Position numbers and translations under genes: made by a program. Positions 5,800 to 22,242 of a stretch of DNA of 64,000 nucleotides are shown here, one piece after another. Under the pieces are notes generated by a model, which saw only the letters and a list, made by a program, of their open reading frames with translations, made no database searches and was not told the origin of the DNA. The stretch covers positions 15,091 through 79,090 of the forward strand of contig JBEKBA010000008.1 in NCBI GenBank assembly GCA_050015635.1, written 5' to 3'. Within the stretch, counting starts at the first letter, position 1. Every line of letters begins with the position of its first letter. Source of the stretch: Verrucomicrobiota bacterium. GTDB lineage: Bacteria > Verrucomicrobiota > Verrucomicrobiia > Limisphaerales > UBA11358.

Positions 5800-5985
5800 T
5801 TAACCGCCAAGGCAGCGTGACGGTGCACCCAATTATAGAAGATAATCAGGGACGCGGTGGAAGTCCTTGCGGACGGCCAATGCGCCTGACGGCGCGGGAA
5901 TGGGGAAAAAGAAAAATAGACACGGATTAACACGGATGGAAACACCTCTCCCCGACCCTCTCCCCAGAGCGGAGAGGGAGAGTAA
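5800..5985. repeat. Mosaic cluster of short palindromic repeat modules (BIME-like)
   Basis: Order: TTAACCGCCAAGG; GCAGCGTGACGGTGCACCCAATTATAGAAGATAATCAG; GGGACGCGGTGGAA fused to GTCCTTGCGGACGGCCAATGCGCCTGACGGCGCGGGAATGGGG; AGACACGGATTAACACGGA; CTCTCCCCGACCCTCTCCCCAGAGCGGAGAGGGAGA. Each module recurs many times in the window. Confidence 0.85.
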
Positions 5986-6015: not shown

Positions 6016-6177
6016 TCAGAATCTGAACTCGATCTGCCCTTTGTGCAGTTGATGATAATCTCGACCCGCTCCCTGTCCTTTGACGCATTCGGCTATCACT
6101 TTCTCACTCCCATGCTGCCCCACCGTATTCACAAAATACCCGTTGCCCCAAAACTCTCCTCCCCACAACTTATTTTT
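6016..6177 (-). pseudogene. Remnant (C-terminal ~53 codons) of an IS200/IS605-type Y1 transposase TnpA
   Basis: KNKLWGGEFWGNGYFVNTVGQHGSEKVIAECVKGQG resembles the conserved TnpA C-terminus (xxFWxxGYFxxTVG...I..Y). The N-terminal HUH part is missing and the upstream part of the ORF is unrelated. Confidence 0.55.
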
Positions 6178-6223
6178 GACCCCAGGCACTCGGACAACCT
6201 TCGCAGGCGTGGTCTGGGGGCGC

Positions 6224-9648: not shown

Positions 9649-9712
9649 GGGACGCGGTGGAACGCGTCCTTACCATGTCAAATTTTGGTAAGGACGACTT
9701 CCACGTCGTCCC
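9649..9712. repeat. REP doublet: two G-REP hairpins in inverted (tail-to-tail) orientation
   Basis: GGGACGCGGTGGAACGCGTCCTTACC - atgtcaaatttt - GGTAAGGACGACTTCCACGTCGTCCC. The loops are reverse complements (GTGGAA/TTCCAC). The stems differ by compensated changes. Confidence 0.85.
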
Positions 9713-15160: not shown

Positions 15161-15362
15161 TCACGAAGCAGCGTGACGGTGCTTGCGCACGGCCAATGCG
15201 CCTGACGGCGCGGGAATGGGGAAAAAGAAAAAGAGACACGGATTAACACGGAAAGGGATTTAACCGTCAAGGCAACGTGACGCTGCACCCGATTATAGAA
15301 GATAATCAGGGAAGCGGTGGAAGTCCTTGCGGACGGCCACCAGTCCCTACCCTGTCATACCT
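15161..15362. repeat. Mosaic repeat cluster downstream of ST4
   Basis: tcacgaagcagcgtgacggtgc (same junction as after ST1 and ST5), then CGGCCAATGCGCCTGACGGCGCGGGAATGGGG, AGACACGGATTAACACGGA, AACGTGACGCTGCACCCGATTATAGAAGATAATCAG, and GGGAAGCGGTGGAAGTCCTTGCGGACGGCCACCAGTCCCTACC. Confidence 0.85.
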
Positions 15363-15486
15363 GGTAAGGACGACTTCCACGTCGTCCCTAATTCGTTTTT
15401 ATTTTCAAACACGGTGATTTTTGGAGAATTGCAGCGTCGCTGCAGCCGGGCTGCAGTGCCGCGGCAATGAGATGGCAATCTCACTG
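15363..15486 (+). promoter_or_regulatory. Conserved 5' leader of ST5 (shortened version)
   Basis: Identical to the ST4 leader through H1 (15428-15468) and GAGATGGCAATC. The 3' arm of H2 and the TATACT/TTGCGCAA segment are missing, and the leader is fused to the ATG at 15487. Confidence 0.55.
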
Positions 15487-17438: not shown

Positions 17439-17816
17439 TTACGATATGATTTCAACGGCGCGATGTGAAATGCGCGAGTCAAATGTTGCCAGTCTCATCT
17501 GGTGTGCCGCGGCCAATTCGGCAAGATAAAAATCGGTCACCTGTTCCGAGTTGTGTGCGGAACTTTTCAAAGCATTCAGGTCATCCGGCAGAAAAAGAGA
17601 TTTGTAGCGGGAAATAAAATCACTCAATGCCTCCCGCGCGACCGGCATGGGAACACCGTAAATTTTGGGATGGGTGACAATTCTCAAGAAGCCGGTTTCA
17701 CAAAGCGGACAAGTGGCCAATGATTTTCCAGCCAGCCATTTATCAGCGGCGGCATATTGTGTATGCGAATCCAAAATCGCCGCAATCAGAAAATTTACGT
17801 CGAGAAGGTATCTCAT
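17439..17816 (-). CDS. vapC: PIN-domain toxin (VapC-like)
   Basis: MRYLLDVNFLIAAILDSH... is the PIN N-terminal acidic motif (LLDxN). 125 aa, with a 4-nt overlap with the upstream antitoxin ORF. Confidence 0.8.
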   Translation of the reverse strand: MRYLLDVNFLIAAILDSHTQYAAADKWLAGKSLATCPLCETGFLRIVTHPKIYGVPMPVAREALSDFISRYKSLFLPDDLNALKSSAHNSEQVTDFYLAELAAAHQMRLATFDSRISHRAVEIIS

Positions 17817-18070
17817 GGCAGGCCGGCCAGAGCCGCACGAACCTGCTCCGTTGTGACCGCCGGGCCGCCGGTAAGAATGGAATGCTTCCCTCTGCGTCTT
17901 AACAGACGAATTTGATGCCGGTGCGGTTTTGGCTTTTCAAGGCGCACCAGGATCAGCCGGCCATCGCCATCCGGTTCAACGGAGACAACGTCGCCTGTGT
18001 CAATATGAGCCTGTTTGCGGGCCTTGGCCGGAATGACCATCTGGCCGCGACCATAAATTGTCGCATGCAT
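17813..18070 (-). CDS. vapB: AbrB/SpoVT-type antitoxin (VapB-like)
   Basis: MHATIYGRGQMVIPAKARKQAHIDTGDVVSVE... is the AbrB/MazE-like looped-hinge motif. ATG at 18070 is preferred. Confidence 0.75.
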   Translation of the reverse strand: MHATIYGRGQMVIPAKARKQAHIDTGDVVSVEPDGDGRLILVRLEKPKPHRHQIRLLRRRGKHSILTGGPAVTTEQVRAALAGLP

Positions 18071-18148
18071 GGGCCAAACATAACGCAAGCATTGCTTACA
18101 TACAACAAAAGAATTGATGCCGCGCCTATGGCGCTGAGAAAGAAGTTT

Positions 18149-18212
18149 GGGACGCGGTGGAACGCATCCCTACCATGATAAAATTTGGTAGGGACATCGC
18201 GCTGCGATGTCC
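18149..18212. repeat. REP doublet (inverted pair of G-REP hairpins)
   Basis: GGGACGCGGTGGAACGCATCCCTACC - atgataaaattt - GGTAGGGACATCGCGCTGCGATGTCC. The second hairpin has a different but fully self-complementary stem (GGACATCGC/GCGATGTCC). Confidence 0.85.
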
Positions 18213-18242
18213 GGATGCCGCATTTTGAGAAGGGCAGCGGGA

Positions 18243-18650
18243 TTAAAGCAGACCGCGATGAATCAATTCATCGGCCAGCATTTTCGGCGAAACAATCTTC
18301 ACACCTTGAACTGTTTTGCCAAAATACACACCAAAGTCCTGCTGATCACCGGTGAGCAGATGGGTTGCGCCTCCGGCAACGGCCCCGCCCAGAATCGGAA
18401 CATCCTTCAACGGCAATTCCACTTTCAAATCAGTAACGAGGGCGGGAACCCATTCACATTTTCCGATCAAAGAATCCAGATGGCGCAATGCCGCGGGGAA
18501 TTTTACCTCAAGATTCCGGCGCGCCTCCTCGACGGCGTAGGCACTGGTGATGCACCCGCCATGTTTGAACAACACCTTTAAAAAGGCGCGCATCCGGCTT
18601 TGCAGTGGCGCGCCGGAAAAGAGAATGTTCGCATCCAGAAACACCCTCAT
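18243..18650 (-). CDS. PIN-domain protein (toxin of a second PIN/AbrB pair)
   Basis: MRVFLDANILFSG...HLLTGDQQDFG is PIN-like (FLDANIL start and a conserved late acidic residue). It overlaps the upstream antitoxin ORF by 4 nt. Confidence 0.7.
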   Translation of the reverse strand: MRVFLDANILFSGAPLQSRMRAFLKVLFKHGGCITSAYAVEEARRNLEVKFPAALRHLDSLIGKCEWVPALVTDLKVELPLKDVPILGGAVAGGATHLLTGDQQDFGVYFGKTVQGVKIVSPKMLADELIHRGLL

Positions 18651-18877
18651 TTCTTGAACTTCAAGCGGGACAACGCCTCGTCGTTATTGCGGTTGAATTC
18701 GGCCAGCCGCTTTTCGGTGTAGATTTCCAATGGAAAAGTGACACCCGAACGCAACAGGATGCCTTCGCTAGTTTCCTCGGCGACAACCTGCCCGGCGCTT
18801 TTGAGACCAAGCCTTTGCCGCAATAATTTGGGAAGCGTGAGCGTTCCCCGTTCATTGACGTTGATGACCTTTGTCAT
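18647..18877 (-). CDS. AbrB/SpoVT-type antitoxin
   Basis: MTKVINVNERGTLTLPKLLRQRLGLKSAGQVV... is an AbrB-like motif (G.lt.Pk..R..lgl..G). 76 aa, directly upstream of the PIN gene. Confidence 0.7.
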   Translation of the reverse strand: MTKVINVNERGTLTLPKLLRQRLGLKSAGQVVAEETSEGILLRSGVTFPLEIYTEKRLAEFNRNNDEALSRLKFKK

Positions 18878-18912
18878 ACTTTCAGTATTTCACACTTTCA
18901 GCTTTAATGCAA

Positions 18913-19737
18913 GTGGCGGATGCGGGGAAGAAGAAAGTTTGGGACGCGGTGGAAGTCCTTGCGGACGGCCACCAGTCCCTACCGTGACAATCTGGTAAGG
19001 ACGACTTCCACGTCGTCCCTGACTTGATTAAGAAGATAAATGGGACGCGGTGGAAGGACGACGGCCACCAGTCTCTACCATGTCGTCCCCACCGACAATT
19101 CGTGAATCATTCCTTGATACGGCCAGTCTTCCGGGCGGGTAACGAGTTTTTTGCGCACCGGATTCTCCCGGACATACAGCCACTTTGCCATGTATTGACG
19201 GGCATCACGCAGACGATGGTGAAAGCCCGACCGCTGCCATGCCCATGGTTGATTCACATGTCGGCGGTTGAACCGGCTCTTCCAATACGCCACCCATGTT
19301 TCAATGGTGAAGGCCAGATCGCGCGGCGCGCAAAACACATGCAAATGATCCGGCATCAACACATATTGGCCAACCAACCACGCATCCGCCGCCCGCCAGA
19401 TTTCCTTGAGTGATTCGTGAACCAATGGTTGCGCCAGCCATGGAATTCGATCTTTTGTGTTCACCGTCAACAAGATAATATTCGGGCCGGAGAGGGAAAT
19501 TTTTACGCCGCGGGAGGGAGTCTTGCGACCTGGAATCCGGTCAGGTGAAAAACGTTCAACCATGATCAAATTTATTAAACGTGGCGGATGCGAGGAAGAA
19601 GAAAGTTTGGGACGCGGTGGAAGTCCTTGCGGACGGGCAGCGTGACGCTGCACCCGCACCTTGCGGTGGGCCACCAACGGACGCCGCATCCATCGTCGCC
19701 AAGGCTATGACGGGACAAGGCGCGGCATCCCTAACCT
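18913..19737 (-). mobile_element. RAYT unit: HUH/Y1 transposase gene bracketed by REP-containing direct repeats
   Basis: 56-nt direct repeats at 18913-18968 and 19581-19636 (55/56 identical) flank CDS 19075-19563. Both flanks carry G-REP hairpins and related modules. Confidence 0.65.
19075..19563 (-). CDS. REP-associated tyrosine transposase (RAYT) / IS200-like HUH Y1 transposase
   Basis: HUH motif in YVLMPDHLHVFCAP. Tyr motif in AKWLYVRENPVRKKLV. ATG at 19563 is preferred, because the ORF-track extension to 19689 runs through repeat sequence. Confidence 0.8.
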   Translation of the reverse strand: MVERFSPDRIPGRKTPSRGVKISLSGPNIILLTVNTKDRIPWLAQPLVHESLKEIWRAADAWLVGQYVLMPDHLHVFCAPRDLAFTIETWVAYWKSRFNRRHVNQPWAWQRSGFHHRLRDARQYMAKWLYVRENPVRKKLVTRPEDWPYQGMIHELSVGTTW

Positions 19738-19759
19738 GGAACGGTACCTTACACCAAAG

Positions 19760-19790
19760 CAAAAAAAGAGCCGCTCCGAAGAGCGGCTCC
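19760..19790 (-). terminator. Intrinsic terminator of the PEP-CTERM gene
   Basis: Minus strand: GGAGCCGCTC-TTCG-GAGCGGCTC followed by TTTTTTTGC, about 30 nt after the stop at 19820. Confidence 0.8.
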
Positions 19791-19819
19791 TGTGAAAACC
19801 TAAAACCAAACCCGCAGTA

Positions 19820-20437
19820 TTACGCCTTTTTGCGGCGAGCAATCAGCAGTCCTGCCAGACCCAAGCCACCCAGCGCCAGCGTGGTAGGTTCCGGCACAGC
19901 TAAAGCAACCGTGAACCCTGTAAGCGGTATTGCAACTTGCCCATTATCACTAAACATATCTCCCTCCAATTGCAAGTTAATGGAAGTGCCAAGAGAATTA
20001 AACTTAACCACTCCTGAAGTTCCAGTTATAGTGTCAGCAGCATGACCGCTTACTGTACTGGTATTAAAGGCATAAACCTCGAAATACGCAGGTGCTGTTC
20101 CAGGGTTCGCCGGATAAGTCGAAACTGTAACCGGGGTGGATACAAAAAGTCCTGCCCCATCCGCTGTGTCACCAAGAAAGCTCCCATAAAACGCAACCGG
20201 GGTTGTTCCGGCCACCGCATTAAATGTTCCCGCCGTTCCCGTGGAGGAATACAAAAGTTCGGCACTAAAATCACTATCCACTGCCAAACCATTATCCGCT
20301 CCCAAGCCCGAAATGGTCACCGGAGCCGTACTGCTACCATTGTAGTTAACAAAAACCAGATTGCCCTGGGCACTCGCCTTGTTTACAGCAGCCATGGCTG
20401 CCACGCCTATAATTGATGCTATGATTGTTCTTTTCAT
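19820..20437 (-). CDS. PEP-CTERM sorting-domain secreted protein
   Basis: Signal peptide MKRTIIASIIGVAAMAAVNKASA. C-terminus VPEPTTLALGGLGLAGLLIARRKKA is PEP-CTERM (VPEP + TM + basic tail). Confidence 0.85.
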   Translation of the reverse strand: MKRTIIASIIGVAAMAAVNKASAQGNLVFVNYNGSSTAPVTISGLGADNGLAVDSDFSAELLYSSTGTAGTFNAVAGTTPVAFYGSFLGDTADGAGLFVSTPVTVSTYPANPGTAPAYFEVYAFNTSTVSGHAADTITGTSGVVKFNSLGTSINLQLEGDMFSDNGQVAIPLTGFTVALAVPEPTTLALGGLGLAGLLIARRKKA

Positions 20438-21180: not shown

Positions 21181-21423
21181 ATTTTTAGTTTGTTGTTACC
21201 GAGTGTACCGTGTGCAATGTGAATATCTCAAATTACCAGCCAACTGTCAACATTTTTTTGAACGTTTTTGAGGCAATCTGAATCGGTCAAAAGGCCTTAT
21301 TTCAAAGGGTTTTCTGCAATTCATGGCTGAAGGGGTCAAATGTTTCTCAATGTTAACGCACTTTTTTGGATGATTTTCAAAGCCATTTAGAGCATTTCCA
21401 TCAATTCTGTAGCGTGCGCCTGC

Positions 21424-21516
21424 GATCCTTGCGGATGGCCACCACTTGCGGACGGCCAATGCGCCTGACGGCGCGGGGATGGGGAAAAAGCAAAATAGAC
21501 GCAGATTAACATGGAG
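21424..21516. repeat. Mosaic repeat modules upstream of the second Y1 transposase gene
   Basis: gatCCTTGCGGATGGCCACCACTTGCGGACGGCCAATGCGCCTGACGGCGCGGGGATGGGGaaaaagcaaaatAGACGCAGATTAACATGGA. Confidence 0.8.
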
Positions 21517-21540
21517 GAAACGCGTCTTTTGGAAGCTTCG

Positions 21541-22242
21541 TCAGGAGCGACATCTTTGTAGAAACCAGAATAAAAAGATTTCCCAGCTCCCTCAGGAGCG
21601 GCATCTTCCGCGCATGGCCAACACCTACACGCAAATTTACATTCACGTCGTGTTTGCCGTTGAAGGCAGACAGAATCTCATCAAGCCGGCACACAACGAC
21701 GAATTGCAAAAATACATTACCGGCATCATTACGGGCCAGAAACAAAAATTGATTGCCGTAAACAACATGCCGGATCATCTGCATTTGCTCGCCGGTTTGA
21801 GGCCGGATTCCCCGCTCTCGGATTTGGTGCGCGATGTGAAGGCGGGCTCTTCAAAATTTATCAACGAAAAACGCTGGGTTGCCGGAAGATTTTCGTGGCA
21901 GGAAGGATTCGGGGCGTTTTCACATTCGCGTTCGCAACTTGGCACGGTCATTCGTTATATTGAGAATCAGCAAAGGCATCATGCGAAGAAATCGTTCCGC
22001 GAGGAATACATTGAATTGTTGGAGAAGTTCGACGTGGATTACGACCGGCGATACATTTTCAAAACGGATGATAAATAATGTTTGTTGTTGAAAATATGGA
22101 TTCCCAAGCGCCGTCAGGAGCGGCATCTGCCGTTCGCAAATCCATTTGAATTCCGGCTTGAATCATTTTTAAATTATGCCGCCCCTACGGGGCTTGATCA
22201 TTTTGCGGATGACGCACTACAAAGATACCGCGCCTACGGCGC
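21541..22242 (+). mobile_element. IS200/RAYT-like unit: Y1 transposase gene bracketed by TCAGGAGCG(A/G)CATCT repeats and TAC-loop hairpins
   Basis: 15-mers at 21541-21555, 21592-21606 and 22114-22128. Hairpins GCCCC-TAC-GGGGC (22181-22193) and GCGCC-TAC-GGCGC (22230-22242) lie downstream of the CDS. Confidence 0.5.
21614..22078 (+). CDS. IS200-like / RAYT-type HUH Y1 transposase
   Basis: MANTYTQIYIHVVFAVEGRQNLI..., HUH motif NNMPDHLHLLAGL, and Tyr motif VIRYIENQQRHHAKKSF. ATG at 21614. Confidence 0.85.
   Translation: MANTYTQIYIHVVFAVEGRQNLIKPAHNDELQKYITGIITGQKQKLIAVNNMPDHLHLLAGLRPDSPLSDLVRDVKAGSSKFINEKRWVAGRFSWQEGFGAFSHSRSQLGTVIRYIENQQRHHAKKSFREEYIELLEKFDVDYDRRYIFKTDDK

Follow-up and report, generated by a model that had tools for sequence, protein, structure and literature searches.

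What kind of element is the small HUH/Y1 tyrosine transposase gene that lies between two nearly identical 56-nt direct repeats in the genome of an uncultured Verrucomicrobiota bacterium (GCA_050015635.1), and are these repeats its ends? The gene is located in a stretch of 64,000 nucleotides that we call the window, and whose coordinates are used throughout unless a contig or a locus is named. The source assembly (G000) is a metagenome-assembled genome (MAG) of 3.46 Mb in 286 contigs, 93% complete, in which the gene is found on contig C8 (81.5 kb); the genomes compared are designated G0xx and the loci compared L0xx. We consider it probable, at roughly 85%, that the locus is a REPtron, that is, a domesticated and single-copy RAYT (tyrosine transposase associated with repetitive extragenic palindromes, REPs) of the TnpA_REP type, located amid its cognate GTAG-headed REPs and REPIN dimers (REP doublets forming hairpins). 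A first-pass annotation, made from the letters of the window, had proposed a RAYT embedded in its presumed substrate, and this proposal was borne out: the best match of the protein is the E. coli TnpA_REP (PDB 4ER8) and REP hairpins flank the gene on both sides. The components of the locus are the following.

19766-19791, minus strand: intrinsic terminator belonging to the PEP-CTERM gene upstream, where the REPtron has its outer edge
19637-19737, plus strand: repeat-module mosaic upstream of the RAYT, whose hairpins and long REP are described singly below
19581-19636, plus strand: right 56-mer, in which the distal leader is joined to the arm and loop of a REP (GGGACGCG-GTGGAA) and to the module GTCCTTGCGGACGG
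19564-19608, minus strand: 5' leader of the RAYT (AAACTTTCTTCTTCCTCGCATCCGCCAC GTTTAATAAATTTGATC, then ATG), with its distal 28 nt within the right 56-mer
19075-19563, minus strand: coding sequence of the RAYT (TnpA_REP-type HUH/Y1 tyrosine transposase), an intact open reading frame (ORF) of 162 aa
19042-19090, plus strand: chimeric REP over the RAYT stop codon (TAG 19075-19077), encoding the C-terminal SVGTTW; a head-to-head REPIN minus 28 nt at 19055/19056
18994-19019, plus strand: REP-B, hairpin GGTAAGGACGAC-TTCCAC-GTCGTCCC with a GTAA head
18941-18985, plus strand: REP-C, a long REP with a 20-nt GTCCTTGCGGACGGCCACCA module in its loop, ending in GTCCCTACC; hairpin of -12.6 kcal/mol
18913-18968, plus strand: left 56-mer, 35 nt upstream of the start of a mazE-like gene and part of a portable unit of REPs and toxin-antitoxin genes

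Identity and persistence of the transposase

The 162-aa protein between the repeats carries the motifs PDHLHVF and YVRENPV already recognized in the first-pass annotation, with the HUH residues at H73-L-H75, the catalytic tyrosine at Y130 and an asparagine four residues later (N134). These four residues (H73, H75, Y130 and N134) were invariant in an alignment of 30 homologues, which also served for the profile and the structural model described below. The catalytic residues had been named beforehand as a point at which the identification could fail; they align with the HUH motif, Y115 and N119 of TnpA_REP in 4ER8, the roles of these residues being taken from the literature on that protein (PMC6006769). 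Classification with hidden Markov models, also proposed beforehand, gave a mixed outcome, in that the top NCBIfam family was indeed REP_Tyr_transpos (NF047646), but the score of 68.6 bits falls under the cut-off of 80. The Pfam scan at E <= 10 gave nothing for either the 162-aa frame or a longer 204-aa frame; the coverage of TnpA_REP by the Pfam model PF01797 is known to be poor (PMC6006769). Membership in the class therefore rests on profile, fold and context and not on curated thresholds, which are operational ones, and the sub-threshold model scores place the protein in a divergent clade.

Searches of all PDB sequences gave 4ER8 as the sole significant match (E = 0.002 when queried with the single sequence, 3.8e-10 with the 30-homologue profile), and neither search returned IS200 or IS608 chains. 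The AlphaFold (AF2) model obtained on the homologue alignment (pLDDT 85, pTM 0.78) again had 4ER8 as its best Foldseek match over the full length (E 6.4e-9, TM 0.66/0.65), followed by the TnpA proteins of ISDra2, IS200 and IS608 with E of at least 3.5e-5 (about 4e-5) and TM of ~0.5. Both the sequence and the predicted fold thus put this RAYT nearer to TnpA_REP than to the TnpA of IS200/IS605.

The family comprises 967 homologues at E <= 1e-3 with a typical length of ~158 aa, mostly unannotated or called 'putative transposase' or 'RayT' (IMG), and the named members are Verrucomicrobia. Genes of this clade are usually annotated as 'hypothetical' or 'putative transposase' because Pfam misses them and NCBIfam leaves them under its threshold. 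The longer 204-aa frame, which starts at 19689, is not conserved among the ~158-aa homologues; this ORF call is an artefact that reads through stop-free REP and leader DNA, against which the comparative set is a warning. No database record corresponds exactly to the 162-aa protein, the databases carrying the 204-aa call instead.

The RAYT is single-copy in G000, where a search at E <= 1e-3 finds the gene itself alone. Several identical copies with defined ends, which the first-pass annotation had held to be the mark of an ordinary insertion sequence (IS), are thus not what this assembly contains. The remaining Y1 genes (window 21446-22078, a fragment at ~6079-6189 and one on contig C234) belong to different subfamilies. 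There is no tnpB-sized ORF adjoining the RAYT in the ORF list of the window, and no element-specific ends common to another copy were found for it, the flanks recurring elsewhere only as REP modules. What characterizes the IS200/IS605 insertion sequences (many near-identical copies, their own ends and often tnpB) is absent from this gene.

In comparison with three orthologues of 77-82% protein identity, dN/dS was 0.11-0.26, indicating purifying selection, with dS of 0.76-1.2 and therefore synonymous sites near saturation. These orthologues have a common neighbourhood, in which the RAYT is preceded by the PEP-CTERM gene with its terminator and followed by small toxin-antitoxin genes, with TPR-sulfotransferase genes close by, and the near-identical strain at L023 has the same arrangement as the window. 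The terminator is kept in L012 and also at the site without RAYT in G002 described below. The conserved locus, the purifying selection and the co-variation with the REPs suggest that the gene persists by vertical inheritance.

REP hairpins and their variation between genomes

REPs were taken as GTAG-footed following PMC3733652 and PMC6006769. On one strand their core reads GGGACGnn-GTGGAA-nnCGTCC and then (C/T)TACC; the cognate REP of the opposite strand is 5'-GGTA(G/A)GGACGnn-TTCCAC-nnCGTCCC. The core GGGACGCGGTGGAAG was found 16 times in the window at <=2 mismatches (0.19 expected) and 71 times in the genome. Short REP hairpins number 33 in G000 at <=1 mismatch, with 0 in the reversed control, and 38 at <=2 mismatches; 33 of these 38 have Watson-Crick nn/nn pairs, changes in the stem being compensatory, and 32 have the TTACC or CTACC tail that corresponds to a GTAG or GTAA foot. 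There are in addition eight long REP-C copies with the 20-nt module in the loop. In total G000 has ~64 REP sites, 19 of them on the 81.5-kb contig of the RAYT where 1.5 were expected. The flanking 16-mer test of Bertels et al. (PMC5581495) gave a similar picture, since the RAYT flanks hold the two commonest 16-mers of the genome (56 and 54 copies) and only 0.4% of random 220-nt windows reach a 16-mer with 40 copies.

The RAYT is flanked on one side by the REPIN 18941-19019 and the chimeric REP 19042-19090 and on the other by a REP at 19609-19636. REP-B, the hairpin at 18994-19019 that had been pointed out at first sight, does fold as single-stranded DNA (-6.6 kcal/mol, z = -3.0). Together with REP-C it makes a head-to-head REPIN, and the region 18935-19025 folds as one hairpin of -20.8 kcal/mol (z = -3.3). 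Comparable REP doublets are located in the window at 9649-9712 and 15309-15388. The third REP type, REP-A, has the sequence GGTAGGGACGCGTTCCACCGCGTCCC.

We compared these repeats with those of the relatives. The full-length orthologues inspected (L002-L009 and L011-L013) all had flanking hairpins with a GTAG, GTGG or GGAG head, the stems differing from species to species. For example, the RAYTs of G003, G024 and G014 are bracketed in inverted orientation by a hairpin type GGTAGGGC...GCTGCCGC...GCCC with compensatory variants, present in 8, 21 and 44 copies in the respective genomes and in 0 in the controls. The sequence of the REP co-varies with the RAYT across species, and the flanking hairpins are dispersed in their own genomes. 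The REP family of the window is itself abundant in genomes of four other families of the order, with 45 copies in G025, 76 in G027, 16 in G029 and 16 in G034. The 45 REPs of G025 include two identical ones in the same orientation (GGGACGAGGTGGAACTCGTCC), between which lies a 54-aa C-terminal remnant of a RAYT (L017, G025:C25, 1471-1699).

The genome G002, of the same genus, has neither the RAYT nor the REP family of the window. At its syntenic site (L027, G002:C20, 2823-2967) a truncated REP (GATAAGGCGCGCTCCA) comes within ~40 nt after the PEP-CTERM gene with its identical terminator, ahead of the promoter region and the antitoxin/PemK pair that come after the RAYT in L013 (88.8% identity over 383 nt). 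Related species thus either have the whole REPtron or lack it. REPs of equal orientation on its two sides would make the RAYT deletable, which the G002 site fits, and a loss by recombination between such REPs is the simpler reading, although it may also have been a gain. Species-specific REPs at the orthologues, a site without RAYT in a genome without REPs, and indels and IS insertions exactly at REPs make the link between RAYT and REP unusually clear from comparison alone.

The last of these are seen between very close strains. L023 carries 28 extra nucleotides (CGCGTCCCTACCATGTCAAATTTGGTAT) at 19055/19056, and on the two sides of them it matches the window at 100% and 99.9% over 2.2 and 2.6 kb. 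The chimeric REP of the window is, relative to L023, a 28-nt deletion inside a head-to-head REPIN. As had been noticed earlier, this copy (19042-19090) overlaps the stop codon of the gene at 19075-19077; the last codons of the RAYT are supplied by the REP, and SVGTTW represents a 3-aa insertion with respect to the homologues. Furthermore, a perfect 122-nt copy of 18934-19055 is located 47 kb away (C8:81429-81550, at the contig end) with different left-hand flanks.

A multi-copy IS with ends ...TTAATCGGACACCAGT and ACTGGTGTCCGATTAA... was also found in REP-A and REP-B hairpins, in every case 3 nt beyond the TTCCAC/GTGGAA loop. It interrupts the assembly at no fewer than seven contig ends (C1:1-123, C28:1-100, C60:1-100, C64, C65, C44 and C11) and is found as well at L024:3661-3734 and L025:1-98, its interior being absent from the G000 bin. 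At L025 it is inserted in REP-B at the position equivalent to window 19014/19015, between the RAYT and the toxin-antitoxin unit. We considered L025 as a junction without RAYT and discarded it, its 5' flank being the end of this IS in REP-B, where the contig stops.

The comparative set accounts for much of the hairpin mosaic of the window. Upstream of the RAYT, the part at 19637-19737 holds the hairpin GCAGCG-TGA-CGCTGC, which is the commonest 16-mer of the genome (56 copies), the mini-hairpin CACC-TTGC-GGTG with GGCCACCA, and a long GTTAG-headed REP at 19677-19737 that has 4 further copies at 96-100%. The abundant modules GTCCTTGCGGACGG and GCAGCGTGACGCTGC are found in the flanks of the RAYT and around the second Y1 gene of the window (21.4 kb) and are absent from the flanks of the orthologues; they may or may not be substrates of this RAYT, another enzyme being the alternative. 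An Rfam search at E <= 1 over 18000-20000 gave sub-threshold, terminator-driven matches only.

A second abundant hairpin family, GTGG-CC-N4-GCAA-N4, consists of mini-hairpins whose stem is 4 bp long and whose loop is GNRA-like when read on the complementary strand. The genome has ~86 copies, 60 with complementary stems (10 and 0, respectively, in the reversed control), the stems being GTCC/GGAC, GTCT/AGAC, CACC/GGTG and GTGC/GCAC. Its sites in this part of the window are 18955-18974, 19623-19676 and 21426-21461, and it is often nested in REP loops, as in REP-C, or fused to the GCAGCG-TGA-CGCTGC hairpin.

The 56-nt direct repeats and the toxin-antitoxin unit

The direct repeat GTGGCGGATGCG(G/A)GGAAGAAGAAAGTTTGGGACGCGGTGGAAGTCCTTGCGGACGG is found, as first reported, at 18913-18968 and 19581-19636 with 55/56 identity. 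The full 56-mer occurs nowhere else in the 3.46-Mb assembly, but the 35 nt at its 3' end are a common REP module. Outside it there is weak similarity on the 5' side (9/15 over 15 nt, reached by random windows in 0.6% of trials), and on the 3' side identity falls to 10/42. Read in the orientation of the gene, the right copy consists of the module CCGTCCGCAAGGAC, the REP loop and arm TTCCAC-CGCGTCCC and then AAACTTTCTTCTTCCTCGCATCCGCCAC, and 17 nt (GTTTAATAAATTTGATC) separate it from the ATG of the RAYT. This leader is clearly conserved upstream of the L013 orthologue despite a coding dS of 0.76, and is weaker yet recognizable upstream of those of L011 and L012; metagenome contigs, in a set from which near-identical records may be missing, had 0 exact matches to the leader part of the 56-mer (TTCTTCTTCCYCGCATCCGCCAC). 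The right 56-mer is composed of the REP half that lies upstream of the RAYT and of 28 nt of the conserved leader.

The left copy belongs to a different unit, listed here with the REP cluster that closes it.

18647-18877, minus strand: mazE/AbrB-like antitoxin of 76 aa, with a weak match to Pfam MazE_antitoxin under the cut-off
18243-18650, minus strand: PIN-like toxin of 135 aa, with a weak match to Pfam PIN_3 under the cut-off
18143-18213, plus strand: REP cluster closing the far side of the toxin-antitoxin unit, with a REP-A hairpin and an inverted GTAG-headed hairpin; -16.9 kcal/mol, z = -4.3

The unit extends over 815 nt (19055-18241), from REP-A, REP-B and REP-C over the left 56-mer to the mazE-like and PIN genes. 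A copy of 99.1% identity is found at L024:2823-3637 in a different context (an IS1595 transposase, an AAA_15 ATPase and DUF3226, with no RAYT within 3 kb), and with its left 56-mer the unit recurs also in L025. The left 56-mer is probably a recent duplicate of the upstream region of the RAYT, now fused ahead of the mazE-like/PIN operon and travelling with it. The two 56-mers bracket the RAYT because the RAYT and the toxin-antitoxin unit are neighbours; the 56-nt direct repeat is neither an IS end nor a transposition scar of the RAYT.

The first-pass annotation had also contrasted the direct repeats seen here with the inverted REPs of classical RAYTs, a contrast that does not hold. An inverted REP pair (19003-19025 and 19603-19625, 23 nt, 83% complementary) brackets the RAYT as well, formed by REP-B and the REP arm that precedes the gene, and it corresponds to the inverted REPs found around the orthologues of G003, G024 and G014. 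A same-orientation REP is found on each side too because the downstream side carries doublets, and L011 likewise has same-orientation REPs on both sides of its RAYT. The proposal that the long repeats recorded the duplication or excision and reinsertion of a whole cassette survives only in part: one 56-mer is the leader and REP of the RAYT and the other is owned by the toxin-antitoxin unit, but the whole REPtron does come and go between species, as at G002.

Next to the mazE-like/PIN pair (18243-18877), and also downstream of the RAYT, the window contains a second antitoxin/PIN-toxin pair (AbrB-like/PIN) at 17439-18088, and both pairs are preceded by a REP and then CCCAAACTT(T)CTT. In relatives this position is taken by other toxin-antitoxin genes (PemK in L013 and G002), which makes it a variable toxin-antitoxin spot beside the REPtron. 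An integron-like array, in which each small gene downstream of the RAYT would be a REP-bounded cassette, was considered and rejected: L011 and L012 have runs of small genes without intervening REPs.

The shared 56-mer could have been kept as a promoter or operator module, made of the REP half and the pyrimidine-rich leader, by which the RAYT and the toxin-antitoxin genes are co-regulated. This is compatible with a REPtron, although unlikely. The leader is conserved upstream of the RAYT orthologues despite a coding dS of 0.76-1.2; the three consecutive minus-strand units (RAYT, mazE-like/PIN and AbrB-like/PIN at 17439-18088) are each preceded by a REP and then CCCAAACTT(T)CTT; and the left 56-mer stays attached to the toxin-antitoxin genes in three contexts. 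However, no sigma-70-like promoter was found in 18600-19900 at the thresholds of the scan, and with 55/56 identity the duplication may be too recent for the copies to have diverged.

How would a REPtron of this kind work? By analogy with the E. coli TnpA_REP, a monomeric HUH enzyme would bind the REP folded on single-stranded DNA and read its GTAG foot, Y130 would cut with a metal bound by H73 and H75, and the strand would then be rejoined, so that REPs and REPINs might be copied or excised and the RAYT gene itself not. A rather improbable alternative is that the RAYT is no longer a mobiliser of REPs, being inert or having another function in the host, and that segmental duplication, gene conversion and recombination alone account for the spread of the REPs. 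In its favour, the REPs are few (~64 sites), G027 keeps 76 REPs without an assembled orthologue of the RAYT, and the REPs of the sulfotransferase array have long identical flanks. The REP doublets of the array share these extended flanks and have therefore been duplicated along with the gene units; the earlier suggestion that the RAYT possibly drives the rearrangements of the array finds no support. Against a RAYT that no longer mobilises REPs stand its invariant catalytic residues and the purifying selection on it, the co-variation of REP and RAYT across species, the strain-level indels exactly at REPs and the perfect 122-nt copy of a REP cluster with different flanks 47 kb away.

We give little credence to the idea that the mazE-like/PIN unit, bounded by REPs, is a cargo moved by the RAYT between same-strand REPs, with the control region of the RAYT captured by the operon. 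The likeness would be with an IS200-type enzyme, which moves the DNA between a left and a right end, the RAYT moving a REP-delimited segment in the same way. At L024 a second same-orientation REP-B follows the unit, giving a 29-nt direct repeat, TTAATCAAGTCAGGGACGACGTGGAAGTC. Only if this movement were true would the locus raise a new question.

Finally, it is very unlikely that the 668-bp segment, with the RAYT, its REPs and one of the 56-mers, represents an IS200/IS605-like element that is or recently was autonomous, with same-strand hairpins as its ends and direct repeats marking excision and reinsertion or tandem duplication. Y1 transposons such as IS608 and ISDra2 do use same-orientation subterminal hairpins, such REPs do flank the RAYT in the window and in L011, and G002 has an empty site. 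But the gene is single-copy without tnpB or defined ends common to another copy, the REPs around its orthologues differ although the locus is the same, the left 56-mer is a part of the toxin-antitoxin unit and is found with it in L024 where there is no RAYT, and fold and sequence are nearer to TnpA_REP than to IS200 TnpA.

Some observations weigh against the REPtron itself. The protein stays under the curated NCBIfam threshold (68.6 for 80 bits) and Pfam Y1_Tnp (PF01797) does not match it even at E <= 10. The MAG is 93% complete and divided into 286 contigs, and the 122-nt copy of the flank ends C8, so that a second RAYT copy, collapsed or unassembled, is possible. No orthologous RAYT is present in the assembly of G027 with its 76 REPs, and in G025 the RAYT is a C-terminal remnant only, at a contig end. 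Part of the REP enrichment of C8 comes from tandem duplication of sulfotransferase units and their spacers, with identical flanks, and not from transposition. The 56-nt duplication has only a probable direction, and it may have come about by recombination, gene conversion or action of the RAYT.

Comparison with known systems and other Y1 genes

The TnpA_REP and the REPtron of E. coli were reportedly described by Ton-Hoang in 2012. Like that RAYT (YafM; PDB 4ER8; Messing 2012, PMC3479197; Quentin 2018, PMC6006769), which is its best match in sequence and fold, the protein of the window has the HUH motif, one catalytic tyrosine and the asparagine, but the identity is only ~18%, its NCBIfam score stays under the cut-off and Pfam PF01797 does not detect it. 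The two REPtrons have in common a single-copy gene, GT[AG]G-footed REPs with an inverted pair and doublets, and a mosaic setting like that of bacterial interspersed mosaic elements (BIME). They differ in the REP of the window, with its 6-nt TTCCAC loop and GGTAGGGACG foot, one copy of which overlaps the stop codon and encodes the last residues of the protein.

The REPIN-RAYT systems of Pseudomonas fluorescens (Bertels and Rainey 2011, PMC3116915; Bertels 2017, PMC5581495) resemble the one described here in the single-copy RAYT kept vertically and flanked by the most abundant 16-mers of the genome, in the inverted REP doublets, in the cognate REP that differs for each RAYT lineage, and in a relative that appears to have lost the RAYT and the REP population together. 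In contrast, the REPs of the window are tens and not hundreds, their doublets are head-to-head with 6-11-nt spacers, and other hairpin modules are nested inside them. The RAYT clade also appears to fall outside the proteobacterial groups.

GTAG REPs and REPtrons have already been described in the Planctomycetes-Verrucomicrobia-Chlamydiae (PVC) superphylum, including the families GTAG-17 to -20 of Opitutus terrae and those of Rhodopirellula baltica (Di Nocera 2013, PMC3733652). The system of the window shares with them the GTAG/GTGG-footed stem-loops in Verrucomicrobia, the dimers and clusters, the REPtrons and the use of a REP as coding sequence, and the GTGG-footed variants at the G001 and G035 orthologues recall the GTGG majority of O. 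terrae GTAG-20 (PMC3733652). The stem and loop consensus of the window appears to be different, and its host is uncultured. With the TnpA of IS200/IS605 (IS608, ISDra2; PDB 2VJV, 2XM3) the RAYT shares the HUH/Y1 fold and, by analogy, presumably a chemistry on single-stranded DNA hairpins, but the fold match is weaker (E ~4e-5, TM 0.5), Pfam gives no match, and the gene is single-copy with no tnpB and no element-specific ends. The system is therefore a divergent REPtron or REPIN-RAYT of established type, and enlarges a class known chiefly in Proteobacteria by one well-documented REPtron of an uncultured Verrucomicrobium.

Other Y1 genes were found along the way. The second one of the window (21446-22078, plus strand) is of the IS200 type (Pfam Y1_Tnp 80.7 bits, NCBIfam IS200 60 bits) and is preceded at 21386-21486 by GTGG mini-hairpin modules and a CCAATGCGCCTGACGGCGCGGGGATGGGG module. 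A similar string of modules is found at 5864-5920, near the Y1 gene fragment. In addition, distant Y1 relatives of 26-33% identity lie inside stop-free frames of 960-1440 aa, for example at G039:C54:5978-6226, G036:C6:21722-21973, G019:C26:33768-34097, G016:C5:338793-339041 and G021:C13:39456-39779, and appear to be nested in frame within large genes.

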